Positions 4,461 through 61,914 of a stretch of 64,000 nucleotides of DNA are shown in pieces. Numbering within the stretch: position 1 is the stretch's first letter; each line of letters opens with the position of its first letter. A program made the translations under genes and the position numbers. The stretch covers positions 24,116,709 to 24,180,708 of the forward strand of contig OZ316894.1 in the NCBI GenBank assembly GCA_973895155.1, given 5' to 3'. Source of the stretch: Marsupella aquatica (taxonomy: Eukaryota; Plantae; Marchantiophyta). The notes below the pieces were generated by a model that searched no databases, had not been told where the DNA came from, and worked only from the letters and a program-made list of their open reading frames with translations.

Positions 4461-7400
4461 CACTAGAAGAAACCGGCCCTATCTGAGACCCTCCCTTACA
4501 TGACTTACTTGAGACCTTTGGAAATTAGTGACTCCAAGGTTATTGGTGTCATCTTTGTTACACCTTCTCAACTAAGTTTTGGTGAATTTTTGGAGAGTCA
4601 TATCTATAACTATTTGGAGTGTTGCAATTGTAACTTAGTGTAGGCAATTATTTTGAAGTTTTATAAGTGACTCAGCACAATTATAATAGCGCTTTCTGCC
4701 ATATTTATCACCATGGTTGCACATATATAAGAACAATATAACTTTGGCTCTTATTAAATAATAATGCCGACCCACATCCCAAATCCAACCCATACATATA
4801 TACTTTATATGTATGATTGACAAAATGATTATAGGTATATGTACCGGAGGTCGGTGCAATTGCAAGTCGCGCGCCATGATGCAGGCCACTGGTTACTCCA
4901 TCATACAAAGAGAAAGACACACACTGAACCCACTAACATCATTTGGCAGCATTCTGTCTCCAAATATACCCCTTGGCCAATTTCAAATGGTTGCAACTCC
5001 CTTCATCTAGGAATATTGAACAGCCCAATATTAGGGACTCTTTTTGTTAAGGGTACAATGCAATGCCTTTGCCGCAAGACCACTTCTACCTACTCTTCCT
5101 TGTAATGCGTGTTGCCCTCAATTGGCTTCATGAACCCCTTCACCTAATGGACCATGCCACAAGTTTCCACGTGTTACATGGTAATGCCTTTGCCCATTGA
5201 CTGTTTTTCCCAAACCCCTTGTGCCAAAACCCTTGGGAGAAACGACGAGTGCCTTCGCGCGCACAGAGTGTCGGCATTTGGCGAGCGAGAAGGAAGAGCC
5301 GAACATCGTCAGGCTTGGGCCCTAGGTTTCCTGAGTGAATCCTATCGAGCTTCTTTGAGTGTCTTGTCTCCGCTGTGCGCTTGCAGTCAAAGGCTTGGAT
5401 TCTCGCTACTATTGGGAGCTCGGGGTTGGAATGAGGGTTGAGTCATTGGCATTTTGTTGGCAGTGGAAGGAGCTGTGGGTTTAGGAGGCTGCTTATTGCA
5501 AGCACAAAACATTGCAGCGGTGACATTGCTAGGTTTTGCTACTGTGCTGAGTGAGGTTGAGGCTGGGTCCAGAGTTTACAAAGGTTGTCGGGAGGTTTAT
5601 CACGGATGACTGGCGATTGGTGAGGCCTATTTGCATTCATCTCCACTATCATTGGGTACCCGAGATACAACGATCGACCTTCTATACAGAGGCGAGGAAG
5701 TGACGAGAACCTACAACTCTTTGCGGGAATGCGTGGTCTTCTGCTTACCTGATTGCCCTCATGCTTGACTGTAAATACATTAGTAAAGTTTTGCTTTGGC
5801 TCAACTTTGGTCTTTTTTGGCCTTGCGTGACTGCGCTCACTTCTCTCGGTTTCCAGTGTGCAGTTGGCTAAAGACCTGGATGTCATGCTGTGAGCGCAAG
5901 CTGCTAGTAGTTGTCCATAGCTTGGGGAAAGCGGTGGGGACTGAGGCCACAAAGGAGTTTGACCTGCGCTTTTTTTTCTTTGCAGCAAGAGCGAGAGTGA
6001 GACGAGTTGCAAATTGAGTTTCATTGAGCTGCTGCCCTGGGCTTGGCGGAGGTCCTACACTCTTGTGTCGCTCACTTCAGCTGCGGTGGGAGCGGGCTTT
6101 TGGTAGTGACCTGTTCAGTTGCAGTGGGAGCTGACAACTTTGGTGGCTGTGGTGTTGAGCTTCTGAGGAGGGCAAGCAACTGCGTGATGTGCCCTTGAGT
6201 GAATGTCTCTTGGAGGAGCTGCGAAGTGGTGAAAGGGGAAGGAGGTGAGCTCGGGCCTGGAAGCAATGTGCTTCTCCAACATTTTTGCACAATGCAATGC
6301 TGCTCAATCGTTTATCCTTCCTCTAAAGCTGAGTGTGACGCATCGACCTTTGACGGGAGTATCTGCATTACAGTTTGCTACATACGGCTGCTCTCTGTGT
6401 GGCAATCGCCAATAGCTAGCGCAATGGAGGGTTCGACGTCAACTTTGAGTCATTGATCAGTGCACACTACATCGCTCTCCCTTTGCTAAACCCTTTCTTT
6501 TGGCTTGGTTCTTGGTGCCTTTGGCATAGGAGCGACGTTATTGCTAATCAACTCCCGAATCAACTTTGGAGGTGCGGGTTAGAAGGGGTTGGAGAGAGGA
6601 GGTCCAAACCGAGAATGCCCTTCACCGTCAACGGTTTCTACTAGTCCCGGCCATGCAGCTGAAAGTGCGCTTCTTTCAGGTGTCGTAGCATTCTGCCAGC
6701 CGGGTGCTTGGACTGCAGAGAAGAGCAGCCACAGTCATTCAGTTCTTCTCCTAGCTCAGCTGCGCATTGTCAACCATCGAGCGCTGCTGCGCGCTAGCTG
6801 TGAACCCCAAGAGGAGCTGCGACAAGGAGGAGATGCAACCAAGAGGAGATGCGACGAAGAGGAGATGCGACCAAGAGAAGCTGCTGCATCCCACATTGAG
6901 TTGGACATTGAGGTAGGGACGTGAGCTACGCACTTTCAACCATCAAGCAACCACCAAGCTCGGCAGCGCTCTGGGATTTGTTGGCCACAGCAGACAAAGC
7001 GGAAGACAAAGGTGAGTGTTCGTGCACCGTTAGAGTAACCGCAAGTACTCTATTACATGCCTCGTTGTTCTCTATTACATGCCTTGTTCTCCCGCCCACT
7101 GTTTCCTGCGATTTTCTTTCTTCCATAAGAGAATGGTGATTTCTTCTTCTATCAAACAAAACCCCACCCAACCACCACACAAGAACGTGGGGTGCGCGCT
7201 TCTTAATCCTCCTCAAACTGGCCCATTGTTCATTGAAACCCCACATATTACCCACCGGCACCAAGGGTCCAGTCCCAACCCGTCTTCCGCTCCCCACCAT
7301 CTTCACTCTCTCGCGCATCTATCTCCTGAACGGCGTCGCTCTCCCTTAGACGCAGAATGCTCCGTTGTGATATTGCCTCCAACTTTTCTAGTGCAGTCTA

Positions 7401-9007
7401 GGCAATTAGACTGCTTTTGCGAAAACTGCCCTTCTTAAAAGTGAGCAATACTAATAAGCCCCGGGGGTGGAGCGTTTGTTACGATGGCCGTGGACCTACC
7501 GTGGGCTATGGTAGAACACTCTATTGTCTATGATGATTCTGAATCTGCTTGAATTGCGAGTGGATGTGCTTTAAGGCAAACTTGTCGGAGAAATTAGAAT
7601 GGGGGGACGGAGCTGTCAGTGCTTAGGTTGTGGCATTTTTGAGATTGTCAAGAGTAATCTGTGATCTCATTTCTAAATGGTTTGAGCTCCTCTGATGTGC
7701 ATAGGAATCGGGCTGAGGAAAGCTTTTGGGAGCTATCATCGGAACTAGCTTTCGATCTATTTCTGCTACTTTTGAATTGGTACTTGGGAAGGCTTTGTAT
7801 CGTTAAGCACTACAAGATTCACAGGCCAGACCTGCTTGCTAGTATGAGGGGCTTTGAAGGAATGTGTGGCCAGGGCTGATTAAGTATGGATTAATTTTGC
7901 ATTGCCTGAGGTACTGAAACTGCCACCCGCTTTGTTTCAATGCCTTTGATATTAATTGTTAATATCTCAAGAGGGTCGTCAACTAAGCTGAAAGGAGTCA
8001 AAGCTAACTACAAGCTAGCAAATACAGAGAATGCTCCCAAGTCGAGTCAGGAGGAAGTTACTAAAACTAGACCTTCACAACTCTCGAAACTGGAAAGTGA
8101 AATTCAGCGTGAGACACGTAGCTGAAGGCCACAAGGATAACTATATGGCCACGCTGTCCCCCATTCAAGTCCAAAGTCCTCTTCAGATTGTCTGAACTCC
8201 TATTGAATGTATTGAATAATTATTTCATCACAGAAATTTTCAGAACAAACACGGAAGCACCAGGGGGCTGAGGATTGGATATTGAGGCTGAAGACATTGA
8301 GGTCATAAACTAGGTGTGGTTCGGGTGACAATGTTAGCAACTGATGCTTCTTCAGGGGAACTTCCCATGTGCAGTTTATCCACACATGATTGACTTTGGT
8401 TCTTGCTGTTTTTCTTTTGGTGTACTCTTGAGTTTGGTGTCACTCTATCCTTTCCTGTAGCCTCGAAATAGGAACACACCTGCTTAGTGGTCCCCAATCG
8501 CCCAATGATTTATAATGACTGTGTCTAGGTGATGTATGCATTGCGTGTTCATTCCAGAAGAATGAATATGTACACTTTGCACAAACCTGGACAGATTTTG
8601 AATGTTATTTATCTGAGTTTTTGTTTGTGAGCTCTGACTTGGAGCCTTAACATTTGTGTTTCTGTGGGGCTGAGCAGAGTTTGTTCCGTCTAGAAGCTGC
8701 TGTACTAAAGTGATCAGCCTCCGGCTTGGAGGTGAATCTTCAATTTTTTGTGGATCCGAGTGACTTCTGTCCAGCTGAGTTTTGCTTTGTCGGGACGATT
8801 GTGTTTGGCTAAGATGCTAGATTGTGGCTTGTCTTCTTGCTTCCAGCTTGTGTATTTTCAATTAATAGAAGTTGGGAACGAAGTGATAATTGAATTTCCT
8901 TATATTAAGCATCTTCACCTAGAAACTCAATACATAAACTCCAGGATTCCCTCGGGACATAAAATGAGCCAAATTGTCTCAAAATTGGGAACCTGCACCC
9001 GCACTAC

Positions 9008-9350
9008 TCAAACAATTGTGTTGGGCTTGGTGGCCTTGTAAGTCTTCTTTAGCTTTCGCAATGGAGGTTGAATCTTGCAGTACGTCAAGGGGAACTTGAT
9101 CTTTGAATCATGGAACTGCTTGGTACTTTCTCGCTTGCACAGAGAGACAGGGACTGTCGTAGTCTTCATGATCTGGATGCAAGGGAACCAAACTCTATGA
9201 CAAGAAGCCATCTCATCATACATCTGCTCTGCAGCTCCGTTTCTTGTGGTATCACAATATTCCTTGTACATGTTGTGATAACCTGTACGACTCTGATACG
9301 TGGACCCAGATACCGAAGTTCTTAATTGTGGTGGGCTTCTTTTCGAAGAT
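9008..9350 (-). pseudogene. RPL18A: Captured last exon of 60S ribosomal protein L18a (eL20), frameshifted
   Basis: CAG|[16 protein letters not shown], then a frameshift, then [41 protein letters not shown]. This matches plant L18a. The splice acceptor is retained at 9351-9352. Confidence 0.93.
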
Positions 9351-10383
9351 CTGGTAGACACATTATTCAGCATTTGCTAACTTCGAAACTAGAAGGGTAA
9401 CACATTAAACAACAGAGAAACTCACAACATCCTCCTTTGGTCCTTCAGAGTCTGTACTTTGATTCTGAAGTTTGACTGAGTTTTTGTTTACTAAAAGAAT
9501 GTGACTGTGTAAGAGTTCCGTTTGGCAGTGGATTGGTTGAAGCACTTCATGCTAGTGTGTTGTCCACAGCTCTTCAACCAGCTTTCGTCTTCCTTGTCTT
9601 TCACCACTTACGATGACATCAATTCAGCTAAGACCATAGAAGGTTCCAAAGCATCTAACTTGTAAAATCGCATTCTGTTACATCAAGGACTAAGGTGTTG
9701 GGTGCCAAAGGAGACAGCACAACAAACACGCTGAAAAGACTTCAGGACTGGGTTCAACAAGGTAGTGAAGGTGCTTAGAGCCATAGTAAGTATGCATTCT
9801 GTATCTTTCTCTGTTGATGTGAGCTTGTGCATAATGGGAGTTGTAGTTGGCAAGAGTTCCAAATATGAATAGATCCAGAAGTATGTGATCATGTACTTGC
9901 TCTATAAAGTTCTGAAGATATAAGCATTTTCTGTTAGACCAGGCAACTTGGGAGTTGGTAAGTGTCACCTGCATCTGAGGGGCTACACCGGGGCATTAGT
10001 GGAGGTTCACTTGCACAACACGACAACCAGTGAATTTTCTCTCTGCTGCAACCTGCAAGGTGAGACTTTCGGTCTTTCTGGATGAAAAAACAGGAGTTTA
10101 ATATGATTGATATACATGTCCGTCGAGAATATGGGTTTATCACCAAGCTCTTTGTCTTAGGAAACTCATAAACTCAGAATCAAATATGTACTATGCACGT
10201 TTCATGCTATGTGTATACTTTGACCTGTAGTTGGAACCAAGACAATGAGTGGGAACTGATTAGTTTAGGTGGTTGCTGTTGGCGAGGCAAGTCGACCTCC
10301 TGCTCACCTTGCTCATCAAAGGACGTGAATAGAGGACATCACAACGAAAGCAACACTTATGGTGAGGACCCGCAACGCTGAAC

Positions 10384-10806
10384 ATGTGTGACTTGCACGC
10401 AAGGCAGAGATGTTGCACCTTGAGTATGTCAGACTTGGGATCCTTCCAGCCCAGTCTGCATGGTACTTTGAGTACCCTGTTGTTTCCAGGAACAACTACA
10501 GCCGGCCTCTACCTGCTTCAGTACCCTTCCCGACATCCTTGGTATTTGTGTCTTGTACATGACCCGCCACAAATTAGGTGCCAAGGGTGTGTACACAGTT
10601 GCCAATATGACTGTCCTGCCTGTAGGGCTTCTGGCCCAGAATTGGATGACCGTTCTCTTGAATGCCGATTTTTGCACAGAGCACAATGTATCATCTGGAA
10701 CCACTCGCCATCCTGCAGTGTGCCTGGTGATGTCACTTGTCCTGCCCTCCCAGACCCCACCACCGGTGACTTTGGTGTCTACACATGTTTGGATCACATG
10801 CTCTAG
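10384..10806 (+). CDS. Hypothetical Cys/His-rich protein (possible cargo exon, acceptor near 10489)
   Basis: 140-codon ORF with CQGC..C..CPAC and further C/H residues, co-oriented with the other cargo genes. No family recognised. Confidence 0.3.
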   Translation: MCDLHARQRCCTLSMSDLGSFQPSLHGTLSTLLFPGTTTAGLYLLQYPSRHPWYLCLVHDPPQIRCQGCVHSCQYDCPACRASGPELDDRSLECRFLHRAQCIIWNHSPSCSVPGDVTCPALPDPTTGDFGVYTCLDHML

Positions 10807-11421
10807 AGGACCACTTGTCACACCGCATGCACAGACCAGATACCATTGACCTATAGCTTAACACTCTGACTTCAACACAGAGGATATTTACTTAAAATTT
10901 TGATGTATGAGCAATTTTGGGTCCAGGGTTTAGGGTCAACAGTACATAACTTATATCCTATTATGCCTGCACTAAGCAAAATATCCTAATTTAAGAGGCT
11001 AGCAAACTCGCATAAAAGTCTCTATTGAAAGACTGCTTTCATGACTGCTTTAACTTGGTGAACATTGCAACGTTGAATGAATTAATGGGCCATGTGATAA
11101 TATGCAAAATGATTTATGCCTCACTTATTTGTCTCAGCCACTATCATAACCTATTTAGGATGTATAAATTTCAACCCTTATGACACTGCTTCATACCAAT
11201 CCTCTTCGAAGAATGCCTGTTTTACATGTCACGACTATTGTATGTGATTCAAATGCATGAAATGTTGTTGCAGATCTCCTTTGGTGAATCATAGCCACAA
11301 TTAAAATTGAGGTGTTGGTGGAGAAATTGTATTAGGGGATCAGTTTTGTGTGTGGGCTCAACATACCAAAAGTATGTGTGCTCTGCATCCTTGTGTGGCC
11401 ATTCCAATTCATTGCAGTAGC

Positions 11422-11565
11422 AAATGCCTTTGTACCTTAAATGCTAAATATATTTTACTTTCTGTGCAGTCTGCTAAATTGTAGAGTCTATCTAAATGCC
11501 TTTGTACCTTAAATGCTAAATATATTTTACTTTCTGTGCAGTCTGCTAAATTGTAGAGTCTATCT
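11422..11565. repeat. Perfect 72-bp tandem duplication just upstream of the PHD gene
   Basis: aaatgcctttgtaccttaaatgc...gtagagtctatct occurs at 11422 and again at 11494. Each copy contains an acceptor-like tttactttctgtgcag. Confidence 0.95.
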
Positions 11566-11576
11566 CATGCGCAGGC

Positions 11577-12257
11577 ATGGCACGGCCTAAAATTCAAGCC
11601 AAAAAGCGTGTGACAGAGGTGAGAAACACAGGTGTACTTGGGGCAGATGCTACTAACTTCTCTGCAAGTCAGATTTTCCAGAAGGCAGCTCATTGTTGTG
11701 CCATTTGTGACGATGGTGGGGGCCTGGTCATTTGTGAGGGCCCTTGCATGAGGCATTTCCACCTCAACCCGGAGTCTGACCTTGCTGCAGAAAACAACTG
11801 TCCAGGGGTGGGCCTCCCGTCAACACACCAGGGAGACTGGATGTGCACTGATTGTTTGGAGAAGCAGGCTAAGTGTGCACAGTGTGGGAAGTTGGGGTCC
11901 TATGAGGGCTCTGTTGATGCTGCAGCAAATGTTAGGAAATGTCCAGACCGTTTTTGTGTGAGATTTTTCTGTTTTGAGTGTTTGCCTACTCATGCCACAG
12001 CTTGCCCACTTCATAGGTGCAAGGCATGTGGTGAGCATGATGATGACTACTGGACTGACATAGTCCACTGTGCTAGGTGTCCCACTATGTGGCACTATCA
12101 TTGCCTGAAAGATCATCAAGCAGAGGGTTATGCTTGTGACAGAGAAATCTATGATCACTCTGCACATGGTGTTGATCGATGGATATTTTATTGTCATCGC
12201 CATGCCATTGATCCTACCTCGCGCACTCCTGTGAGAGATCACATATCTTGGCTGTGA
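11577..12257 (+). CDS. Stand-alone EDM2-like composite PHD-finger protein (226 aa), transposon cargo
   Basis: CAICDDGG..CEGPCMRHFH..CTDC..CAQCGKLGS..CPLHRCKAC..CARCPTMWHYHCL..IFYCHRHAID..TPVRDHI. This follows the recalled EDM2 PHD region (CAICDNGG..CEGSCLRSFH..CKNLGS..CPLHKC..CRRCPKSYHRKCL..IYCQEHEID..TPVRDHV). The N-terminus is basic and NLS-like. The ORF is intact and intronless. Confidence 0.9.
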   Translation: MARPKIQAKKRVTEVRNTGVLGADATNFSASQIFQKAAHCCAICDDGGGLVICEGPCMRHFHLNPESDLAAENNCPGVGLPSTHQGDWMCTDCLEKQAKCAQCGKLGSYEGSVDAAANVRKCPDRFCVRFFCFECLPTHATACPLHRCKACGEHDDDYWTDIVHCARCPTMWHYHCLKDHQAEGYACDREIYDHSAHGVDRWIFYCHRHAIDPTSRTPVRDHISWL

Positions 12258-12849
12258 AGCTGAACATTGTACATGCACAGTGCACCTGATGTGGATGTAC
12301 TATTTTTTGAGATTGCAGAGATTCCAATTTTGAAAAGGAGTTGGGTAGGCGAGTTTATATAGGCAGCACTTATCTTGTGCTCTGGCGTCAGTGGCTGGGT
12401 ACATGCCTATACAAACTTATCCTTACAAGCCTTCTTGGAAGTATTTAGGCTGAGTGGTCATTTTCATAAACACTTTCATCAGACTGCTAAATTAAAACAG
12501 GACTTCTAAGTTGTAAGCGTATAAATTATCAGGCATGCAATTAATCAAATTGCCCTATAAGTTTGTCATTGAATGTATCCTCCTTTACAACAAAATATGT
12601 ATGTGCCATGACAAGTTGGTTGCACTTCATTTCACCACGGATATGGATTTTGTAGTATATATTCAAACAATGTCCTGCATCCGTGCAGGTGCCTAGTACG
12701 TATTGTTCACATATCCCTTGTACCTATCAAAATCGGACCTGAGCACCAGTGGGCCAGATCAACTCAAAAAGCAGGAATTTTGTTGTCCTTGTATTGTCAG
12801 GTGAACCCATTCTTCCAAAATTCACTGTCATCACGTAGAGTGTGTGTAC

Positions 12850-13722
12850 ATGGAGCCTGGTAAACGTAGAAAGTGTGACCACCCAGCAGTGTTTACAGGG
12901 GTCAGAGCGATTTTGGTCCATGGCCAGCATGGGTTGACCAAAGTGCATTGGCCAACTGTACAGAAACGATTCTCTGAGCTCCATGGCACTGTAGTTCAGG
13001 ACATCACTCCAGAGACTACACATGTTGTTGCAGGGACATGGCTATCAGTGATAAAGAAGTGGTCATGGTCCTACATGAATTCTGCAATTACTAAGCAAGG
13101 CCTAAAAGTAGTTGAGGCCTCTTGGATCACAGATTCCATAGCACATAAGATTGTACAGGATACTGAGCAATATGAGTTGTGGGAGGATGAAGAAGCTTCT
13201 GCATCAGCTTGGGCTGAACAAGAAGTCTGGGAAGCAAAGGCACGGCTTGCTGATCTCCAATATGGACCTGTACTCAACAAAGGACAGAGCTCTACAAGGC
13301 TGAAGTGTATGTTGGCTGAGGAGACGAAGCAACCAACCCCCATTCTGAAAGGGCTGAGCATGGTATTTGTGGAGGCGGGAATTGGAGAGGTTAAGTGCAA
13401 AGTGTACAAGTCCACAGTGCTTGACCTAGGTGGGACAGTGGAGGAGAATATAACAGAGGACACCACTCATGTCATTACTAAGTCATATCCCAAAGCCTGC
13501 CGCAAGTTTGGGAAGGGAGACATTCGCTTTTATGTCATGTCCCATAATGTGTTTGTGGTTTCATATGCTTGGCTTGTGGAATCAGTAGCAGCTGGGAAGC
13601 GTCAAAACCCAATGGACTATGATCTTTTTGAGGCCTGGCCACGGAAGGGTCAGGATCCTTACAGAGAGGACTATGAGACAACAAGTGAGGAATGGGTCAT
13701 TAGCGATTCTGAATCAGAGTGA
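12850..13722 (+). CDS. Double BRCT-domain protein (DNA polymerase lambda-like BRCTs), transposon cargo
   Basis: Two BRCT repeats: FTGV..HGTVVQDITPETTHVV..WITDSI..YEL and LKGL..LGGTVEENITEDTTHVI..WLVESV..YDL. The N-terminus has an NLS-like GKRRK and the tail is acidic. The second repeat (VFVEAG..KFGK..YAWLVESV..GK..N..Y.L) resembles the recalled plant Pol lambda BRCT. Confidence 0.88.
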   Translation: MEPGKRRKCDHPAVFTGVRAILVHGQHGLTKVHWPTVQKRFSELHGTVVQDITPETTHVVAGTWLSVIKKWSWSYMNSAITKQGLKVVEASWITDSIAHKIVQDTEQYELWEDEEASASAWAEQEVWEAKARLADLQYGPVLNKGQSSTRLKCMLAEETKQPTPILKGLSMVFVEAGIGEVKCKVYKSTVLDLGGTVEENITEDTTHVITKSYPKACRKFGKGDIRFYVMSHNVFVVSYAWLVESVAAGKRQNPMDYDLFEAWPRKGQDPYREDYETTSEEWVISDSESE

Positions 13723-14155
13723 GGAGTAGTAGCATCAGTTTGGACACAAGTTTTTTTGTATAAATCAGATCATTGAAATAAATGTGATCTTTGAACTAAT
13801 GTACCTTGTTATGGTTGGTGGCAGTTGGGCTTATTTTACTGTTGGCGGATTGTTGTTTCCTGCTGCCTGGGGGTGTCACTGTAAACGTACATGCAGAGGC
13901 GGTACATTTGAGGACAGCGGAGGAGGTGGTGACACCCTCCAACATTTAGGAATTTTGTGTCATTCACTTGACAATAGGTACACTACTTGCGAACCTGTTT
14001 TTTTCTTTTGGGGTGGTTTAGGGTTTGTGAGAATTTAGTACACGTTATGTTAACTCTTTTGGCAGATACAATCAGGGATATATGGAACACAAATACCACC
14101 ATTAGGCATCCTTGTTCACTGCTGTCCATGACTGCAGAGCTCCCAGCCTGTTACA

Positions 14156-17887: not shown

Positions 17888-18043
17888 GTAATGTGAATTG
17901 TTTGCATGGACATTAGTGAGGGGAAGGATGTGTAATAAAGTAATTCTGAAGCAACACAGATGTATGGATGGATGCCTGGTGATTGTGGTTGCATTGTGTT
18001 ATACGGGGTGACCATAGATGACATGTTTTTGTGGTCCAGTAGG

Positions 18044-22600: not shown

Positions 22601-22608
22601 TAGTGCTG

Positions 22609-37957: not shown

Positions 37958-38000
37958 CACTAGAAGAAAACAGGGCCCTTTATGACCAATCACCCAAAAC

Positions 38001-40535: not shown

Positions 40536-40659
40536 AAAGAACCCAAGAGATATGAAGATTAAAATACTCAATAGTCATTCCAGACACCGGTCATAATTGT
40601 AGAGTCATTGATATAGTTGATAACCCTTCCACTAAGTGCGGGACATAATAGTCATCATT

Positions 40660-49700: not shown

Positions 49701-50456
49701 TATACAGTCAACAATCAGTACATTTACTAAATATCTTCAATATTCTTATAAGTTGCGGACATATTTCATATATTAGTAAGATATAGCACCATAATTGGTG
49801 TCCTTCACAGCACAGCAAAAAAATGAAAAATTAATTAGACACGTACCCCTGCGCGTTGTTTGTCCCCAATGGTTATCTCGTCGTCACAATTCCCCCAGTC
49901 GGCGCCTCCCTCATTCTCAGAGTCACTGTAAGGTGTACCTTCTGACCGCTCACTGCCCTCAATATCTGAGCCGTTGTCTGCCATAGTTGGTATGTTCATC
50001 GCTTGCTGCCTTGCACTCTTCCTTGTTGGTAGAGAAGGTACCTGCAATTGCGCTGGTTTCTTTCTATAAACACGTTTTGTTTTGCTTCTTCCCACACCTT
50101 CTGAACTGCCTTTCATCAACCCAAACTAATGTTAATTAATGTCATTCATGCAAATTTTCAAAGGCCACATTATTTAACAATGCCAATAGCAATTCCCAGG
50201 CCACTGGACGCATTCAAATTCTACTCTAATGTTAATCATATAAAGATTGACATAAGGTGGACTACCAAAGTTGGGAGGGACTATATATTCAAGACCTGTT
50301 CAAATCTGCCGCAGATTTTCCAATCACAGCTGCAATGAAGGCGTTGTTTGCTTTTATGTTCCTCAATCTCTCCAACTCATAGGCCGTGAGTTCAGCATTT
50401 GACTCTTCTGGGGACTCATCAGCCGAATCCAAGACCGAATCACTTGAGTTCTGCAT
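46718..50456 (-). CDS. CACTA TnpA/TNP1-like multi-exon gene
   Basis: ATG at 50456 with exon ..ELTAYELERLRNIKANN; central exon RWADDL..LDPSV..WQYVGG..QWKTLCEWW..KMTRAR..GRGGY; last exon VALATV..GNEIPPG..V..DAPL..FLW. Exon structure and intactness are not fully resolved. Confidence 0.8.
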
Positions 50457-50483
50457 CCACACACTACCAACATAGCCACACGG

Positions 50484-53400
50484 TTACTCTTCCTCAGAAT
50501 CTTCCTCATCTTCCCAAACATCATCCTGTATTATCTCTTCAACTGATTCATCTGTCACCCTTGCAACTGTTTGCTGAGCGACTAAGCTCTCTCCTTCCTC
50601 CAATGGCACAGCTCGGTTAGCAGCTGCAACAAGCTCCGCTTCAACTACCTCGTGATGGTCTACAAGATCATTGTATTCAACATCATAGATACCCTCAACA
50701 ACTCTACGAGACCTTCCCTCCTTATGAAGGACATGCCTCCATGAGGTTCTAGCCTCGTTAGGATAGAAGAAAACTTGCTCAACTTGACCAGGCAAGACAT
50801 AGTCTAACTTCTCGGCTGCAGGATAAGGCATGTTAAAGTTGGCCAGCCAGAGACCAGTTTCATCATGTTTCATAGATGGACCAGTATTGTCTGGTCCCCA
50901 CTTTGACCGGACCCATTTTGCCTTGAGGATAATGGCTGGTTCTAAACGCAATAGTGGTCCATAGTCAAGTTTAAGAATCTGGGTGAGAACCCCAACGTAG
51001 GTTTGCTTAGCCAAAGCAACTCCTGACTGATCCCTTCTCTGCTCGTGGAAAGTGGTGGCCAACCCACTGTCAAATGTAGCGTACCCTTGACAATCTGTGT
51101 CCCTAAGATGGGATAGCTCACGCCAACTACCATCCCTTCCTTTACAGCGCATTACCCTGTAATGATTTCCATAAGCCTTCATTGAAGTATACGTCAAACC
51201 ATGCTGGCTTGGGGGAAAGGAAATAGCCGTCAACAACAACTTGTTTTCATCATCATCAAGGTTAGCTTCGGAAATCTCATTCCTAAACCAAACCCCAAAG
51301 GGAATTCCCTCCAATTCTTGAGGATAAGTTGCTGCTCTACGCCTGTGTGGAGGCCGTGTCTGGTTATTTTGTTGGACAAAAGCTTCCCTCTGTCTTCTTC
51401 TCTCTTCCTCTGCATTCTCATAGAGCCTGCAAACCAATCCAAAAACGTACAATATCAACCACTAATTACAATATCTGAATAATTATCAGCAAGTTACAAA
51501 GTGTGTCATAAATAATAGTTGCGCAAGTAACAATTTACCTCAACCATGGTGTTACCAACAAATTATTCTGTAGGTAGTATGTATGAGCAGCATCTCGATC
51601 TACCACAGTCAGAGTGACTTTGCATGAGGCCCCTTCCAACACCACCCCTTTAACTCCTTCCTCCTCTTCAGCATCCCAAACACGCCTCCTTGTAGATTGG
51701 CAGTCTACCATATACTCTGTCACAAATCCTAAAGCCTCTTCGAGAATGTATCCTTCTGCCATTGATGCCTCTGGTCGTGCCTTGTTCCGTACAAAACCCT
51801 TCAGATTCTTGAGGTATCGCTCAACTGGATACATCCATCTTTGTGATACAGGCCCACAAATGTCCAACTCTTCCACTATATGCACCATGAGATGAGTCAT
51901 AACATCAAAAAAGGACGAAGGGAAATGCATTTCCAAAGCACAGAGTGTTTGTGCTACATCTTTCATCAACGCATCCTTTGTTGTAGGGTCCCAAACTTTA
52001 CAGCAAATCTTACGCCAAACTCTGCACACACTCACAATGGCCAATCGGGGTCCCTTGTCCATCAAATTCCTCAATGCCAATGGAAGGATCTGCTGCATTA
52101 GGCAATGATAATCGTGAGATTTCATACCTGCCAGCTTATTGCTAGGCCGCACACACTTAGCTAATGAGCTGCCAAAGTCTATGGGAACTTTCAGACACTT
52201 CAAGGTTCCCAGAAATTGTGTGAGCTCTGATTTGCTCATGACATATGGTGCCTTGGGTTTCACAAAGTGATCTTTTTTCTGGTTTGGATGAGGCTTCATC
52301 CACAATTGCTCATGAACACCTTCAACTTGCATATCATTCCGGACAGCAGCAGTGTCCTTCTTCCCAGAAGTTGTGTGGATAAGATTATGCGCAATGTTTT
52401 TCTCCGTGTGCATTGGATCAAGGACATGATTGATCAGAAGTTTCTGCGCGCCAGATATAATAGAACATGAGTAACAAGTTATAAACATGAGAGCAAAGTC
52501 TTGACCAGTCATTTCTTGTGGCCAAATAGATTCATCTACCTTCGAAATGCATAGGCGACGGATACAAAGAAAAATAAACTGACTCTGGCCATTGTGGCTC
52601 CCCTGCCATAATAAAAAAACAACGATTGGTAGTGGGCTCTTCCCAAAATTTTCCCGTCCCAATTGCAGTGGCCAGAGTCGACTAATTTAGAATACAATTT
52701 AGAATACTAATGAAGAAACAGTTCTGTTAGTAACAAAATTGTAGGGTTTTGAGCAAACTCTATGGGTTTTTAAAGTTATCTTAGTCTTTCCAAGGAAGTG
52801 AAGTGGACAGGTAGCGATAGCAGATTGAGGCAACATGACCCGTAAGATAAGCGACTCTACATCGTGGTTCCTGGCCTTGGACGGCACCACAAGAAATAGA
52901 AAGGGCACTATGATGACCAGGAAAGGAGGAATCATACGACAGGCCCTTACTGCTTATCAGAATGAATTAGATTTTAATTTAGATTCTAAAGTTTTGCAGG
53001 CAGCCCTTCAAACGGTTGTAGGTAGCATCGAGAACTACTACAAAGCATTATTAATCATATCTCGCTAGTTCAAACATTAATTTACGCATACTACAATCTT
53101 AAAACAAAACAATATATTCTAATCGTTTGATTCATTCATTTGCACATGCCTACACAAAAACAAATACTAAAAACCCAAAAAGTACCAGGTCATCAAAGCA
53201 GGGGTAAGAGACCCTTGGAGAACTAACTGAAGAGCCGACTAGGCAAAGACCCAATTCTACAGATGCCTGTCCTCGCAGCCCCCACAATCAATCCAAGAGC
53301 CAGACTGCCTGCCAGCTAAGAGATTGCCAAACATCTATGCGACTTAGCACATTACACACTGTAATTAAACACTGTGGGCCTGTTCCCTCACAAAGACCAA

Positions 53401-55322
53401 GAATGTGCTCGAGCAAAACTGATGAATAGCTGTTCAATTCAAACTTCCACACGAAAGAGTCTTGTAGATAACTAGTTTAAATAAGAGAGATAAGAAAAGG
53501 TAAAGTGATAACTCACAGTCCAATATGGCAGCACGGCAAGACCCTGTTTCCTCTTGACTCCATGGAGCTTTGATGGGCAGTGCTTGCTTCCTTGCTTGGC
53601 CCCTTCTTTTTTCAGAAACTCTTCAACTTCAGCAGCATAAGCCAGCTTTAGCTCGCATGTCATCCTGGGGGGAGGGCCTCGTGACTCTATCTTTCCATCA
53701 AACTTTGCAGCATAGTCAGGAGTACGATACTTGTGATTGGCCTCCAGCCATCTACGGCTTCCAGGGAACACATTTTTTGATAGAGACTGGGACCTTCTAC
53801 AAGTGACATTGGGTCCACACACTACACAACCATGGTATCCTTTGGTCACTTGACCAGAAATGAGGCCCAAAGCTGGATAGTCATTCACTGTCCATAATAG
53901 AATGGCCCTCAGTGTAAACCACTTTTGTTTACCCGGCCTATCTAGTGCATCAAAGCACTTGACTCCTTTCCAGAGCTCTGAAAGCTCTTCTATTAGTGGG
54001 GCCATGTAGATATCTATGTTACGATCAGTTACAGATTCAGGTCCAGGAATCAGTAAAGACAGCATAATAAAAAACTTCTTAGTAGACAACCAGGGAGGTA
54101 AATTGTAATTTAATAACATTACGGGCCATGTGGAATGCTTTAGATTGTTCTCACCAAACGGGTTTACACCATCCAAGGCTAATCCAAGATGAACATTCCG
54201 TGGCTCACTCTCAAAAGTATCATCTATATTAGCTTCAATTTCTGCCCAAGCCCTTGAATCTGCTACGTGACGGACCTTTCCATCCTTGCTCTTATTGTCT
54301 GCATGCCAGGTCATGAGCTCCGAAATGGCTTTACATCTATACATGCGTCTCAGTCTTGGTATGAGGGGAAAGTGACGGAGAACTTTGACTGCCTGCTTTG
54401 ACTGCCCAACCTGCTTGTACCTAGGTTTTTTGCAGGTTGGACAGTGATCGCACTCTAATAAATCCTTTCTGAACAAAACACACCCATCCTCACAAGCATG
54501 GATTTTGACATAATCTAATCCAAGATGACCAATGAGCTTCTTACATGCGTACAGATTCTTAGGAAGCAAATGCTTTGATGGCATAGTGTGTTTTGCCATC
54601 AAGGAAAGAAGCTCATCAACACCTGAGTTAGTAAACCCGTTGTTATGGCAGGTGTTCAGAAAGGTCAATACAAAGGACAGCTGGGAAGTATTGCACCCCT
54701 CATATAGAGGCGCACATGCCTCTGTAAAGGCATTCATCATTCTTTCTTCTGACTCTTGATCCCAACACTCCTCTTGACTAGTCTGCTCCTGAGGTGTGGA
54801 AGTTGTGGACTCCAAGAGCTCATCCATATTAAACATCTCTTCCCCACTTCTCTCTGGATTTTCCCTCGAAGGACTTTCATCTACAGGATCACTTGGATGG
54901 TTTTCCACTGGCAATGCCAAATCCTCCAACAACCGGGGAATTTCCATATCACAGGTTACATCAATGACAGACCCTCCTATAGCTCCAGTATCTATATTGC
55001 TACCCTCTGATGGAGGATTGACCTCGCATAAGTGTTCATTCCACTCCTCATCTGATGTGTCACATTCATCTCCCCACCAATGTCGCTGAGATGGATGTCG
55101 GGAGTACAGTAACAGGTGCTTCTTGACTGTGTGAACACTCACACGGTTACCCCTACAGTTGCAAATGGTGCAAGGGCACTTTATCTTCCCTATACTTGCA
55201 GACCTACAAGCAGCCAGTTGTCGACGCCATAATTTGTCATCCCTAATATGCAACTGAAGATCACTCCTTCGGAAGTCTCTGAATAGCCGAGACTGTCCAA
55301 AGCCTACACGATTGGCACTCAT
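50484..55322 (-). CDS. CACTA TnpD/TNP2 DDE transposase, 3 exons (55322-53517, 52443-51539, 51426-50484), apparently intact
   Basis: CPCTIC; IHACEDGCVLF; RNVHLGLALDGVNPF; YNLPPW; NDYPAL; DPMHTEKNI; KSHDYH; WMYPVERY; QVEQVFF. Intron positions and phases match the CACTA-1 TnpD. Confidence 0.95.
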
Positions 55323-57059
55323 CTTTGCCAATAAACTTAAAAGACTCTCACCTTACCGGACCACAATGACATGCAGTACAACACACCTCAAAGTTGAATC
55401 AGCGCGACGAAGCTACTGAATTTTTGCTTCAATTTGATCACGTAAGTGGGACTGCACATTGCCAAGCTCAAATTTGAACATAGTGTTTCATTCCCTCTCA
55501 TCATTTTCGCTGTATATGGAGAGTAGCACGTACTCACGATTATATTCATTGTCACATTCTCACTTCATGCTAACCTTCTCGTGTAACTGGCAGTGATTGA
55601 ACCACTTCTAGGAGATGATACAGAATTTAAATCCATGGCATCACATGCAATAAAAAGAAACCAAAGGCGTTGATACCTGCTGAGTCGAGGAGAATCTTGA
55701 AGTCTTCAAACCAAGGAGCTTGCATCGTAAACCCCTCACACCTTCAAGGTCACGGACAGACAGCATGAAATGACATCCATCAGCCATGGTCCAAAGCAGT
55801 ACTACTCCATCTAACTCTGCTTCGAGTCCAGGATGACAGACTTACACGCGAATAGACCACAACAAGAAGTTAAAGAAACTTGACACGCATTGACCAGGCG
55901 CGACAACAGAAGTTAACAGGGTTGCGACTGCGAGGGCGGTGAAGTTAACAGGGTTGCGACTAAAAACCTGAGCAATGAATAAGTTGTTGCTCCTGCAGTC
56001 TTGCTGCAAGTCACTGATTCGTCTGCTGACTCTACTTCAGCACCACAACAATTCAAATAGATGGCAACCTCGATTTCCTTTCTTGCTGAGGTCCTGGAAA
56101 TCACCGAGTTTACAACTTCCAAAGCGGGCGGTATGATCACCTTGTCTGTCCCACTCCAAACTTCGATTCTATCATGCAAATCCGTCCAACATTTGAAGAA
56201 TGAGTTCACCAACGATTAAGCCAAGACGTGAGGCGGTTCAGGGTGAGACTTGCGACGGGCACTGCAGATCAAACTAAGAATGCGAGAATGAGCCTAAGGC
56301 AAAGAGTCGAGAAACCGAAACCAACATGATGCGAACAAATGTAAAGACTCTGTGCCGCGCGGAGCCGGGCGGGAGTAGGGATCTTACTGCAGAGTGGGAC
56401 CCGCCCTCCCAATAAATCAACTTCTCATTTAATTACCATTGACATTACCCTAAGACAACAATATTAGTGGAGGTCCTTCACTCTTACCTCAAATTCATAA
56501 TAAATTCCCTCTATATCCTAAGATATTTATTCACTAGAAAGTGAACCCCTACTCCTTAAGTAGTCCCTTACAAAGTCTACAACTAAACTCCACTATCAAA
56601 ATTAACCCTTTGAGTGTTTTACATAACTCATTTCCAAAGCTTCTTCCAAAGTCAAAAGGGCCATCTATCATGTAATAATTTGATGTCAATTAACCATACC
56701 CATACCCATTTTGGCCAAACTACTGGCAACATCTTAGCTAGAAAAGTGTGACAAAGCTAACACTCTTTTGTTGGATATTATAGCCAGATTCAAAAATGGA
56801 AAGTATAGGGTGAAGATGGTACAATATTAAATGCACTACCTTTCTGGCCGGTCAGACGATAGTCCAAATTGACCTGTGGATCAAGTATGTTAGAACGCAA
56901 GCTACCTCTCTTTTCGTCCACCCCTTTTTGTAAAGTGCCCCGGTCTTAAGAAAGGGTCAGATAGATTAAAATAATTAGTATTGACTAGGTACTGAATTTT
57001 AGCCTGGCCTGGGGATTCTGAAATTTACGGTCAAACACCATTCAGCACCCACCAGTCTC

Positions 57060-57689
57060 AAACCACTTGGGTGATTCAGTGGTTTTATAAAACACGGCTC
57101 GCACCACTGCAATGAGAGTGGTATAAGCAGTGCTTTAATTCTTGTCATCTCAAAGCACCTGATTATGAGTGGATTCTGAGTGGGTTCTTCAAGTTGCAAA
57201 GACCCAAGCTAAGAGGGCTGGCACATTGTATTTATAATTTTAGAACATGGGGTGCCAATGGTAGGCTCATGATTTTTGGTTGTAGCCTTCCTCATTCCTC
57301 CAACTTAGCTCCATCACATTGCTCCTGAAGGACAGCTCTAACACAATGGCCTCCCAGTTTGAGCAAAACCACCCACCCCATCACACAAGAAATCAAAAGG
57401 TGCTAAGTTTTGGGGCACATAGAAGTTGAGCAACTCCTTCCACCACCTTTAGCAACATCACTCCAAGAGTTTGTGGAATTGGAGAAATAGAGTTAGTGGG
57501 TGACCCTACCATGTACCACTGGTGAAACCACTCAGACCTCTTAGTGGTTTTATAAAACATGGCTCGCACCACTGCAATGAGAGTGGTATAAAGCAGTGCT
57601 TTAATTCTTGTCATCTCAAAGCACCTGATTATGAGTGGATTCTGAGTGGGTTCTTCGAGTTGCAAAGACCCAAGCTAAGACGTGTGACA
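57060..57689. repeat. ~155-bp direct repeat pair (57060-57214 and ~57525-57680)
   Basis: gtggttttataaaaca..gcaccactgcaatgagagtgg..gacccaagctaaga is present twice and nearly identical. Confidence 0.9.
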
Positions 57690-60051
57690 TATTATTTTGA
57701 CAATCTAATTTGAGTAGATGAGATGCAAATAGTGTATGTGTGCAAGTTTTTTGGTTATAACTAACAGCTGCATGCTTCTTCACTCCTCCACGTCAGCCCC
57801 TTAGTGATATTAAATTAATTCATTTTAAGCAAGAACTAAAGATTGTCTCGCGCAAGACTAAGTGCCAAACGGATAACATTTAAATTAATTAATTTGTGGT
57901 AGAGTTGGGAGGTAGCAATGTCCAACCACCGTATCAAACTACATTCTTTTTATTCAGATTTGTTCTGTAGAGATTAATTGAGAAATATTTACTTTGGGTG
58001 TATATGCTTCTATGTCCCTAGTCTAAGGTAAGAACCTTTGGATCAACGTAAGTTTGTGTGCCAGTTAAGCAGTTTAAACATACACTGTCTGCTTCTAGCA
58101 TTGGTGTAGTCACTAGTGCTGCGCGTTAAGTTTAGTTCAAGAAGAGGAATTCTCGCTACGAGAAGACTTTGCCAGAATGCACTCCTTTGCCAGTTTTCCA
58201 GAATGCACTCCCCTTGCATTCCTTTTGAGTGAATCCTGAAACGCGAGCAGAGGGGACGACACACACCCGCAAGCTATAAACCACAAGCGCAAGCTGCTGC
58301 CATAGGACTCTTGTTGAAATCGAGTACAGTTTTGTAGCATAGCGGATTTCCTATAGCGGTTCATCGGCATCAGTGAGTGAGCACGCGAGAGGAAGGGAGG
58401 TGGAAGGGAAGCAAGGAAGGGAGGGGGAAAGAAAATCTGACTTCAAGAGTTCCGTCAAGGCGCAAGCGGCAGTTTTCTTTGGCACGGATCAATGCTTACT
58501 CGAAGCAATTCTTACTCGAAGCAATACGAAGGACGGATTGACGTCAAGCTTACTCGAAGCAATTCTTTCAAATCTTAGTGATCACTCTGGCTCGGCACAA
58601 ATGGAGGGCTCAATTTCTTGACAAAAGGTCAATCACTCACCGCCCTTGCGAGCTGCGAGGCCGTCAACTTCCTAGTTCGCCACGCCCACAACCATCTTCA
58701 TCAGCTCTTCTCTTGAATGCTGTCACTACATTTCTCATTTCAAGAAGGCAGGCAATCGCAATGGGAAGCCACTGAGAAGTGATGACCTTCATTAGATGCG
58801 AATTGCACCTTAGCTAAGACAGTTTAGGGTTTGCAGATGGAATAATTTCATGGCTGTATGGGATGGTTGCAATTGGGAGGGACGGGTCACAGGGTGATTT
58901 CTCTTGCATATACAACGTGAGGCCAGGTCATAGGGTTGACAGTCTGGAAATTTGGAATATTTTTACAAGTGTTGTTTCTTACGAAGGAGGAATTTAATTT
59001 GGTCGCGCACAGGTAGGCTATAGGTAGGCTACGTAAGGGGATGAGTGTGAGGTTAAGACGATTGCTGGGAAACCTGGTGGAGGGCAGGCAGGAGGCCATT
59101 AGGATAGCAGAGAGGAACAAAAAGTTTGATTCAAGCTGCTGGAATTGTTGAGGCCGACATCCAACTTTCGTCCGCTTCCATGGAGAGGAAAGCGACAGGA
59201 AGACTTTGTATTCCCTATCTTTGTATCTGTCATCATCTACTAGCTCTTTGTGTTCCTGGTTAGACTAGCTTGGTGGTCTCTCATACATTGCACGGTTTTG
59301 GAAGAAAGTGTGGTGGCGAGTGGCTGGACTATGTACTTAATACTATCTCTCCGGTAAGTCTCATTATTTGTTCACCTATAATTAATTGGATCTATTGTCT
59401 GCTTACTCAGACAAGCGTTCAGTTTGTCAGTTTTGCCTTTCGTTCCTTGGCGACTCAACCTAGCTACTTCATATGCATTGTAATATCTCGTAGCACCTGT
59501 GTCCGTTACTATCCAGAGTTTGCAATTGAGTTGGGGAGAACCCCATTGCACTGTCAACAAGAAGATTGCAGTGATTTGTCGAGGGCAATCAGCCATTAGA
59601 CTCTACTTTTATTAATTAGTTGGTCACAAATGTTATTCTTCAGTTGTTATTTCAGCACGCCCGGCATGGTAGTATGTTGCTGATCAAAGCCCGATCGGAC
59701 TGCATTGCAGAGTTTGCAGCTTCTCATTTGATTAAGAAAATAATGACCAATTGCAACAATTTAAGAAAAGTTGCTTTGAGCCGTTCATTGATGTTGTTGA
59801 TGTCTTCACCACAAAGAAATCTGCAACAAGGTTTTGCCAAATTAAGATCATGCTTGTCGTTGAGGGGTCCACGTGCTTTCAGAGTCACTTTGTATTCTTC
59901 TATATCCCTTAGGGCTGATTGTTATACATTGAGTCACAACTAATTCACAATATTTTTGTGGCTTTCTCAGGTAAGTTTCCTCGCTAGGGTACATCATCGA
60001 TCCTTTGCAAGCAAACGGGAGACTAAGCTAGTAACTGAGTCCGCTTGCAGT

Positions 60052-60801
60052 ATGGCAATAGAGGCAAAGTTGGAGGATGCATGGAGCACCTGTAGGCAAG
60101 CTTTTGGTGCAATTTTGTGGTCAGCTGTGGCCTTAGTTTGTGACAGCCTGTTTTGGTCTTGCCTTGGACTACTGAGCGAGTTTTTCCGCTTTTTGCATGA
60201 GCTGCTTGAGCGTCTCATTGCTGTTGCTCGTCCTCAACCAGAAGTTCCTGATTTCAGCCCTCAGTCTGTTGGTAATCTCACTGTTGTTGCTCGTCCTCAA
60301 CCAGAAGGTCCTGATTTCAGCCCCCAGCCTGTTGAGAATCTCACTACTGTTGCTCGTCCTCAACCAGAAGGACATAGTTCCAGCCCTCATCCTGCTAAGA
60401 ATCCAAAAGATGAGCATGGAGAGCAGCAATGGATGCATCCTGTATATGAGCACCATAGCCAGCCAGCTCAAATTCCAGCTCAGCAACCGATAGTGAGAGA
60501 GCAACATCTACTGTATGAGCATGGGCAGGCAGCTCAAGTTTCAGGGCATGGCCAGCATCAGATTGATCCAAGCTTTGATGTATTATATTTTAGATGCAAT
60601 CATCCCTCCTTGCATAGTAGGAAACGGTGGTATGCAGTGGGGAAAGGCCGGAATCCTGGTATCTATGAATGTTGGGAAGAAGCAGAGCGCGAAGTCTCAG
60701 GTTTTAGTGGCAATAAACACAAGTCTTTTAGGCTTATAGAAGAAGCAGAGAACTGGTTACTGGGTCATGTGCCGATAGAAGGTCTACATAGGAATTTATA
60801 A
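60052..60801 (+). CDS. Protein with a C-terminal RNase H1 hybrid-binding domain (Cauli_VI/viroplasmin-type), transposon cargo
   Basis: RWYAVGKGRNPGIYECWEEAEREVSGFSGNKHKSFRLIEEAENWL is the canonical HBD signature. No RNase H catalytic domain follows. The N-terminus has a hydrophobic stretch and 3 VARPQPE repeats (units of about 60-63 bp). Confidence 0.88.
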   Translation: MAIEAKLEDAWSTCRQAFGAILWSAVALVCDSLFWSCLGLLSEFFRFLHELLERLIAVARPQPEVPDFSPQSVGNLTVVARPQPEGPDFSPQPVENLTTVARPQPEGHSSSPHPAKNPKDEHGEQQWMHPVYEHHSQPAQIPAQQPIVREQHLLYEHGQAAQVSGHGQHQIDPSFDVLYFRCNHPSLHSRKRWYAVGKGRNPGIYECWEEAEREVSGFSGNKHKSFRLIEEAENWLLGHVPIEGLHRNL

Positions 60802-61914
60802 GAACTTTTGCGGATCTAACTTGGCAGTGTTGTTGCACTGCACATTGTAATACATTTTGTAAAATTAAAACAATTTCAATGTTTATTTGTACTCACACGT
60901 TGTACAAGATGAAGTCTACTTATGGTTGAGTAACCAGCAAACTCTCTTGCGATCCTTTGCAAGATTGTATTTCCACCAGAATATTTATACTCCCACCCGC
61001 AGAGCTTGCATTGTAGTAGTTCCGTGCTCATTACCAACTGGCCCATGCAAATCCACATTTAACTGCGTAAAGAGCTTGCTACCCTGGTTGCTACTAAGAA
61101 ATGATTTGTAGGCCAAATCAAACTACAAATGGTCCAACATATATTTGTTCAGCAAATATATAGCAGCTGCTCAAGATAGAAGTGTACAACTATATGTTCC
61201 TGACCAAGTCTTTTAATGGAAAACACTGATGTCTCAAGGTTTCTGTTGGGCCAGTCCTTTCTCACCGTTGTCCCATATAACTCTATGTGTCATAGTCATT
61301 AGCCACCGTCACCCAAACAACTACAAAACTACCTTAAACAACTAGAATCCTCTTCATCTCTAATTAGAGTAGTTTTTTAAATTGTCCTTAGTCACTCAAA
61401 TAAAACAAATGAGTTATTCTTTCTATTGCAGTGGTAAACTTAGTTGCTTTTACAAGCCAGATACCACTCTTTGAAAACACAGTTGTTGGGATTGCTTAAG
61501 AGTTGTTTCCGACCAGGAGTAAAAAAGGACATAGTTGTAAAAACCCAATTTCCTTCTAGTGGGTTTTTGTGGTTGATCTGCGCTTTTTCTTCAGAGGAAT
61601 GTGTAGTGGCGGTGGGCAATGTGCATGGAGTGCGGGGCGCATTGAGGTCAGTCACGCAGAGTTTAGGCAGCTACCATGGAGCGCGCACTCCATTTCTTCC
61701 CATATTGTATCAGGGTGCTGCGCGCGGTCGGGGGAGTAGGAAACCTTAGGGTCAGCCGGTAGGACGCGGGAGCTACAACAACGGAGGAGCTCCGATCCAT
61801 TATAGTGTCGCGTAGCATTGCAGAGCATTGGGCGTTGCAGCTATAGGTCTCAGAAAGCTGCAAAGGGTGACGACGTGCGATCGATGATAAGCACATTGTT
61901 GTGAGGATACATTA

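Follow-up and report, generated by a model that had tools for sequence, protein, structure and literature searches.

Candidate accessory genes for host-type binding domains, including a PHD-only gene of EDM2 type, in two CACTA transposons of Marsupella aquatica

The stretch of 64,000 nucleotides analyzed here (Marsupella aquatica, Marchantiophyta; contig OZ316894.1, positions 24,116,709 to 24,180,708; hereafter the window) contains two full-length CACTA transposons, CACTA-1 and CACTA-3, which carry genes for host-type binding domains in addition to their transposase gene TnpD. CACTA-1 encodes a protein with an EDM2-type triple PHD cassette and a protein with two BRCT domains, and CACTA-3 encodes a protein with an RNase H1-type hybrid-binding domain (HBD). 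Judged from their conservation in diverged relatives, the three open reading frames (ORFs) are likely selected accessory genes, and this cargo would likely help the transposon to stay expressed and mobile in silenced chromatin. When all readings of this kind are taken together, it is probable that the cargo genes are kept for the sake of the element. The specific reading that we favor, and hold tentatively at somewhat below even confidence, is that the cargo consists of separate conserved genes of host-type binding domains, with the EDM2-type PHD protein likely binding the element's own chromatin, marked by dimethylation of lysine 9 of histone H3 (H3K9me2), as a mimic of EDM2.

The EDM2-type PHD gene of CACTA-1

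The PHD ORF gives three Pfam matches to NSD-type PHDs, all under the cut-off. A word-based search returned two relatives (81 and 75% identity) and a profile search against 1.84 billion representatives returned 268 matches at E ≤ 0.001. Among the 150 matches listed, seven short proteins rank on top and long proteins come next. The 30 long relatives that were scanned contain mostly NSD-type PHDs, often together with an RFD domain, and one of them is named EDM2 (matched at an E-value of about 1e-20). The best-ranked named relatives include liverwort and angiosperm proteins. A preliminary description of the window had named EDM2 as the parent of the cassette, and the recovery of EDM2 proteins by the profile search supports this. 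The triple atypical PHD cassette is present, as seen from profile matches and aligned zinc ligands; the N-terminal RFD and the C-terminal methyltransferase-like (ELP) region are absent, the RFD being found in the long relatives only. By these features, the PHD ORF is derived from EDM2 but no EDM2 proper. The same description had spoken of a reader that lost its catalytic part; the cassette indeed stands alone, but the missing part is described as a methyltransferase-like domain (PMC7529245).

In a quick maximum-likelihood tree (without bootstrap, with 66 of the 145 cut rows, P0015 and P0089 being excluded as out of frame), all 12 short PHD-only rows lie on one side of a branch and 54 EDM2-like rows on the other (Shimodaira-Hasegawa-like approximate likelihood ratio test, SH-aLRT, 100). 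The stem of the short branch measures 1.7 changes per column. As resolved in this tree, the short PHD-only proteins are a clade of their own and one family. The full-length short members start shortly ahead of the first finger and stop directly past the last motif of the cassette. Ligand 132, in the second finger, has changed from H to C in all 13 short rows with a residue at this position, versus 1 of 60 EDM2-like rows, and Q35 is invariant in the short family (14/14). The AlphaFold model of the PHD protein has a predicted local distance difference test score (pLDDT) of 90 and a predicted template modeling score of 0.84, and its best Foldseek matches are PZP and double-PHD readers.

Across seven relatives with 44-81% identity to the window protein, 166 of the 168 cells at the 24 zinc-ligand positions are conserved, compared to 49% for non-C/H residues; the same positions are also conserved in the EDM2-like rows. 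In simulations of neutral drift of the window gene, the full set of 24 ligands survived in 11 of 3000 runs when identity was 81%, and in none of 3000 runs at 75, 52 and 44%. The ligand pattern argues strongly for purifying selection on the PHD ORF at the protein level, and a neutral capture of this particular gene appears already largely refuted.

None of the 17 short-family clusters examined has an accession or organism name and their contigs measure at most 13.4 kb; the long relatives compared are all named genome proteins (5/5). A degenerate PHD-motif scan of metagenomes gave four loci, which were rejected as bacterial NADH-dehydrogenase-like by translation and had no cargo match by tblastn or blastn. 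Viral contigs scanned for PHD and BRCT gave no match.

Two further observations concern this gene and its kind. An exact 72-bp tandem duplication (11422-11565) lies immediately 5' of the PHD start codon. In addition, three grass proteins of 320-386 aa (P0034, P0036, and P0073) consist mostly of an EDM2-type PHD cassette with a basic N-terminus; they fall among the EDM2-like rows and form a case separate from the CACTA-1 clade, possibly an independent PHD-only offshoot.

The double-BRCT and HBD genes

A gapless alignment of the two BRCT domains of the second CACTA-1 cargo protein with each other (25%, E = 4e-12) points to the duplication of one domain. Its relatives, two plus three cluster mates of 294-295 aa, share 54-60% identity, and conservation is higher in their domains than in the linker (Fisher p = 0.015 and 0.0008). 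Simulated neutral drift rarely left the ORF free of stops (2 of 3000 and 0 of 3000 runs), but this test is biased, as the database holds open frames only. Together, the BRCT data provide moderate support for purifying selection at the protein level. An origin of the domains from Pol lambda, as initially proposed, gained no support from the searches: PDB searches gave generic weak matches (BRCA1, Lig4, Rtt107, and Rad4; E = 0.001 or worse) and no Pol X BRCT. The search for a parent gave Atlas matches below 0.9 and, among length-limited matches, no long protein. None of the 172 pattern matches from a metagenome scan with the BRCT alignment was confirmed, and an AlphaFold prediction of the BRCT protein, made with three sequences, reached a pLDDT of 35 and was not used.

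The HBD ORF of CACTA-3 matches PF01693 (E = 8.5e-16), contains the fold motif of this family, and matches the N-terminal domains of yeast and human RNase H1; this domain occurs in further TIR elements as well. One relative cluster was found (61-67% identity), with identical residues at 54 of 57 positions in the N-terminus, 43 of 92 in the linker (47%), and 38 of 46 in the HBD, a pattern that moderately supports purifying selection on this ORF at the protein level. The conserved hydrophobic N-terminus (60052-60222, +) is possibly a membrane or amphipathic segment. The cargo ORFs had been described as lying upstream of the transposase; they are real and intact, but the HBD ORF lies on the strand opposite to TnpD of CACTA-3.

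Limits and transposase genes of the two elements

The terminal sequence CACTAGAAG has exactly five exact sites in the window, namely 4461 (+), 22605 (-), 37958 (+), 45771 (+), and 61561 (-). Both elements have CACTA...TAGTG termini with short inverted repeats and 3-bp target site duplications (CTG/CTG and GGT/GGT), as is typical of CACTA (En/Spm) transposons. The pairing of the termini is based on these duplications, because the sixth-order chance figure for terminus sites was computed for one mismatch only. In-silico excision of CACTA-1 together with one target copy joins the minus-strand frames 22419-22865 and 3803-4462 into one open frame, which confirms the limits of this element. Both elements were inserted into other repeat-like sequence. 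The TnpD genes contain GT-AG introns and are open after splicing, and both products have Transposase_21 and DUF4218 above the Pfam cut-off. They are 45% identical over 1058 columns, so CACTA-1 and CACTA-3 represent two distinct families. Termini, 3-bp duplications, and spliceable frames were thus all found for the two distinct, full-length CACTAs with intact TnpD of the preliminary description. Features of both elements are given in Table 1.

Table 1. Positions of the two CACTA elements and of their genes in the window.
Feature	Position	Strand	Remarks
CACTA-1, full-length element	4461..22605	+	18,145 bp; CACTAGAAGAA common to both termini; flanked by duplicated target CTG (4458-4460 and 22606-22608)
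Captured last exon of ribosomal protein L18a (RPL18a) gene	9008..9350	-	Behind AG acceptor; PF01775, E = 6e-17; extra base at 9303
Possible fourth, Cys-rich cargo frame	10392..10806	+	Reading across 10550 gives 138 codons; two additional bases there in sister contigs
EDM2-type triple PHD cassette, nothing else	11577..12257	+	226 aa; intronless; upstream of TnpD
Double-BRCT gene	12850..13722	+	290 aa; intronless; two BRCT domains, linker, acidic tail; PF00533, E = 2e-13, two stretches
TnpD of CACTA-1	14156..17887	+	Exons 14156-15979, 16103-17004, 17122-17887; 1163 aa
Putative TnpA-like multi-exon gene region of CACTA-1	19880..21750	+	PF03004, E = 5.5e-5, below cut-off; position after TnpD
CACTA-3, full-length element	45771..61561	-	15,791 bp; terminal inverted repeat of 14 bp without mismatch; target duplication GGT/GGT
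Likely TnpA-like gene region of CACTA-3	46700..49172	-	By position alone; no Pfam match
TnpD of CACTA-3	50484..55322	-	Exons 55322-53517, 52443-51539, 51426-50484; 1217 aa
HBD gene	60052..60801	+	249 aa; N-terminal 57 aa hydrophobic; linker of low complexity, containing 63-bp repeats; RNase H1 hybrid-binding domain at the C-terminus; near 5' end of CACTA-3, antisense to TnpD

Copies in public contigs

Five public runs with three organism labels contain 62-79% of the words of positions 9000-17000. The sequences compared are contigs of unrecorded kind, and their depth gives no copy number. In four runs, 2888, 1262, 408, and 122 contigs were placed on 8900-16100, and three runs cover all 30 bins. 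In run X2, a contig with a single difference has a depth of 2506, next to diverged contigs near 30. This suggests many near-identical copies of the CACTA-1 cargo region. Run X6, from another organism label, has deep diverged contigs over the PHD ORF and the TnpD core and hardly any over the spacers, a pattern for which depth can serve as a hint only. Of 59 indels in sister contigs, the 12 with the best support all lie outside the PHD, BRCT, and TnpD frames (p = 0.0005; cargo alone, p = 0.015).

For CACTA-3, a contig of 2,129 bp in run X1 extends from 59663 via the HBD ORF to the terminus with two differences and continues into another flank, at a depth of 136.5 versus 146.9 for a contig of the TnpD side. 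The HBD gene is joined to the terminus at a second insertion site and therefore moves with the element. An X2 contig over the HBD side ends exactly at the terminus of CACTA-3; coverage gaps over the HBD region in X4, of which 57% was read, were set aside. In each of the four runs, loose contig ends match the sequence left of CACTA-3 and represent an empty site, which possibly belongs to a different copy of the flanking repeat; this flank is a many-copy sequence. Only a few bases per kb distinguish the copies of CACTA-3 from one another. Both CACTA-1 and CACTA-3 appear to be recently mobile. The cargo is, as had been expected, no single-copy sequence: the HBD gene occurs with the element end at a second site, and copies of the PHD and BRCT genes are indicated by deep, tiled coverage. 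Metagenome and viral scans for diverged family members within elements yielded no locus.

The RPL18a piece and the Cys-rich frame

CACTA-1 also contains a piece of a ribosomal protein gene, for which no upstream exons were found. Its frameshift in the window copy consists of the one extra base, which is missing in many sister contigs (in all depth in X2, in 50 of 73 in X5, and in 1588 of 8333 in X4). Without this base the exon is open for 113 codons, and several further letters of the piece differ in sister contigs. RPL18a was therefore rejected as a neutral control, and it does not prove the contrast initially drawn between its decay and the intact cargo ORFs. By its structure, the piece is still a typical captured host fragment. 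The Cys-rich frame may be broken at 10550 in the window copy; its downstream frame has no Pfam match and no PDB match under E 2.9. This region has the deepest and most variable contig coverage in two runs.

Other features of the window

The open frame that CACTA-1 splits (3077-4460 and 22609-22865, -) measures about 317 codons once rejoined and may be a retroelement accessory gene; its longer part has no Pfam match. Within CACTA-3, a segment of about 130 bp is duplicated (57096-57666). The region 37958-45770 starts with an unpaired CACTAGAAG terminus (37958-37966), followed by subterminal-like inverted repeats and tandem repeats of 71 and 83 bp. An array of six to seven units of about 575 bp (40600-45260) also comes after this terminus, and the region as a whole perhaps represents a non-autonomous or truncated third CACTA. 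Pieces of a Helitron Rep/helicase are located at 23701-26607 (-), 1598-2143 (-), and 63357-63879 (PF14214 at 23704-25026), and 1179-1441 is similar in inverted orientation to 63617-63879, which suggests additional Helitron-like copies. Long frames of 195, 269, and 201 aa without Pfam match (34965-37665, -) resemble the fragments of a transposase-like gene that belongs to another element. Nested inverted repeats at 29314-30684, with arms of 25-53 nt around 29300-30700, resemble a miniature inverted-repeat transposable element or a foldback element. A Pfam scan of 67 further frames of at least 60 aa in the cargo regions and 37958-45770 was passed by RPL18a only (9 of the 76 listed frames, located in tandem repeats, were left out). 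The Rfam search gave no match.

A proposed role for the cargo

EDM2 is described as being recruited to the H3K9me2 of transposons, where it works with ASI1/IBM2 and AIPP1 (PMC7529245). EDM2 and its partner factors are reported to suppress premature polyadenylation in heterochromatic transposable elements (TEs) (10.1101/2022.09.21.507229), and H3K9 methylation to persist on Spm elements that were activated by TnpA (10.64898/2026.08.24.746577). A private reader of EDM2 type would be of benefit to an element whose long, intron-containing genes lie in marked chromatin. We propose that the PHD protein would bind the H3K9me2-marked chromatin of its own element in imitation of EDM2, and that this binding would let long intron-containing transposase transcripts be made without removal of the mark. 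The cassette would still bind histone H3, with a specificity that has probably shifted, given the replacement of the acidic residue before the first Cys pair, and might recruit or displace ASI1/AIPP1. The cargo genes would have to be expressed, with selection acting on behalf of the element. With less assurance, the double BRCT might engage end-joining factors at breaks made by TnpD, and the HBD might bind RNA:DNA hybrids. Plant Pol lambda is reported to bind Lig4/XRCC4 with its BRCT and to act at excision sites (PMC4444747); a role at excision breaks would fit if the BRCTs came from this polymerase.

Several observations weigh against an EDM2 mimic. The acidic residue at position 38 is present in none of the 14 short rows, compared to D or E in 47 of 64 EDM2-like rows, and EDM2-like histone binding by the cassette can therefore not be assumed. 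In other PHDs, acidic residues at this place contact H3K4. The cassette lacks the RFD and the C-terminal parts of EDM2 and may be unable to recruit partners. EDM2 itself is reported to repress Mu1 but to activate COPIA4 transcripts (PMC3632883), and the direction of a benefit is thus uncertain. A full-length member occurs in only 5 of the 17 short-PHD clusters examined, the others being cut or out of frame. Moreover, the seven relatives compared were chosen as the most complete and two of them are 91% alike, and protein databases hold open frames only, so the no-stop test is biased. Among the contigs listed, none was found to span cargo and TnpD in CACTA-1, and the cargo relatives that could be placed inside a CACTA element are near-identical copies only. 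The three variants in cargo ORFs (among 40 of 767 and 40 of 396 variants displayed) all change an amino acid. Finally, CACTA-1 also carries ordinary captured host DNA in the form of the RPL18a exon.

Alternative explanations

Instead of acting on transcripts, PHD (and BRCT) proteins maintained by the element might direct the transposition complex to heterochromatin or repeats by tethering it there, in the way that chromodomains act for some gypsy integrases. We consider such targeting of integration unlikely, although all selection evidence cited for the mimic applies to it equally. Both insertions in the window lie in repeat-like sequence, the CACTA-3 flank being many-copy, and the capture of Chromo and PHD readers by TEs has been tied to insertion preference (10.1101/2021.11.30.470311). 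However, a bias cannot be proven from two insertions in a window this rich in repeats, and CACTA-3 sits inside a repeat without having a PHD gene. The readers are also separate genes and no TnpD fusions, and would have to bind TnpD or TnpA. There is likewise only a small chance that the short PHD and double-BRCT genes belong to the host, a poorly sequenced plant lineage, or to another mobile element, that they are conserved because the host needs them, and that they were recently picked up by CACTA-1 as passengers. The diverged relatives may lie in another genomic context, CACTA-1 demonstrably captured host DNA with the RPL18a exon, and the close similarity of CACTA-3 copies means that open frames within the family say little. 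Against a passenger of this kind, the 17 clusters examined include no named proteome with a short-family member, and many members are decayed, as repeats would be. The diverged X6 contigs over the PHD ORF and the TnpD core, hardly over spacers, point in the same direction as far as depth can hint at it, and the cargo genes are intronless, whereas the RPL18a piece kept an intron end.

The preliminary description spoke of decoys or adaptors. As pure decoys, the proteins would block EDM2, end-joining factors, and RNase H1 genome-wide by soaking up their binding sites or partners. Every ORF does retain a binding module without the rest of its parent, but we find this very unlikely. A block of EDM2 would be damaging to host genes that have heterochromatin in their introns, and it can reduce TE transcripts; in plants, broad anti-silencing is reported to be rare (PMC12973397). 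EDM2 promotes heterochromatic read-through as much as silencing, and a mimic therefore fits at least as well as a decoy. Neutral Pack-type capture, in which frames are open only because amplification is recent, is highly improbable. Near-identical copies, decayed relatives, and the non-synonymous nature of the displayed cargo variants would agree with it, but not the 166 of 168 ligand cells kept at 44-81% identity, the domain-by-domain conservation of the BRCT and HBD ORFs, or the start and stop positions common to relatives.

An EDM2 mimic thus remains our favored reading. A wider version is conceivable, though we find it doubtful: an old, widespread CACTA clade of little-studied land plants would have made the EDM2 reading cassette, with an altered H3 specificity, its own gene, and would use it together with a duplicated BRCT end-joining adaptor to bring transposase transcripts through H3K9me2 chromatin, as a class of anti-silencers that reads and does not erase the mark. 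The lineage-wide "variable slot" for accessory genes suggested earlier rests on two elements.

Comparison with known systems

Known plant transposon anti-silencers (VANC and TnpA) bind DNA motifs and cause demethylation. If our proposal is true, a transposon-borne PHD-only derivative of EDM2 would represent a different route via histone reading and RNA processing, which could explain element transcription while H3K9 methylation persists. In addition, the 226-aa PHD protein would be a natural minimal probe for what the EDM2 cassette binds. In the open literature (subscription journals, Repbase reports, and the supplement of the Spm preprint with 962 Spm proteins being outside this scope), we found no report of a CACTA element with a PHD-only gene of EDM2 type or a double-BRCT gene, and a term search of the main text of PMC13547354 gave no occurrence of PHD or BRCT. 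The cargo had been taken as undescribed for CACTA; the literature covered agrees with this for these two genes, but the HBD and one BRCT type are already tabulated (PMC12973397). In Table S6 of that survey, the RNase H1 N-terminal domain (Cauli_VI), the same Pfam domain as in our HBD gene, appears among the accessory proteins of 3 out of 775 active CACTA clusters and one BRCT type among those of 1 of 775; PHD is given for MULE elements only. Its elements measure 2-12 kb, shorter than CACTA-1 and CACTA-3, and the available parts of the survey contain no test of function or selection. The PHD-only family of EDM2 type is new here and carries most of the novelty; host domains kept as accessory genes (KAONASHI) and HBD cargo in CACTA are not new.

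The Ulp1-carrying genes of VANDAL/MULE elements and the Ulp1-like cargo of TIR elements (KAONASHI; PMC13317346) are similar to the cargo described here in that a host-derived domain forms an extra coding gene of an autonomous DNA transposon, is long conserved, and is linked to anti-silencing. KAONASHI is described as a protease fused to VANC in MULEs, whereas the genes described here are stand-alone, encode non-catalytic readers, and are found in CACTA elements. TnpA of Spm/CACTA and VANC of VANDAL elements also are element-encoded accessory factors that counter silencing (10.64898/2026.08.24.746577), but TnpA is reported as a sequence-specific DNA binder derived from the transposase, while our cargo is host-derived and present in addition to a TnpA-like region. 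TEs with fused PHD and Chromo readers (Grau-Bove et al., 10.1101/2021.11.30.470311) likewise captured histone readers, proposed to serve targeting or evasion; these are fusions with TE proteins, with "CACTA" being absent from the main text, as opposed to a separate EDM2-type gene. The RPL18a exon with its acceptor site is a fragment as typically captured by Pack-CACTA elements. In contrast, the ORFs for PHD, BRCT, and HBD start and stop at positions of their own, which diverged relatives share, and show constraint. With the EDM2/ELP family (ASI1-AIPP1-EDM2 complex), the CACTA-1 gene shares the triple atypical PHD cassette, the same end motif, common ligands, and about 30-36% identity. It differs by its size (226 versus 700-1600 aa), the lack of an RFD or methyltransferase-like part, the absence of introns, and its location on a transposon, and its family is set apart by a long branch of its own, the H-to-C ligand swap, a shortened second finger, and the lost acidic residue.

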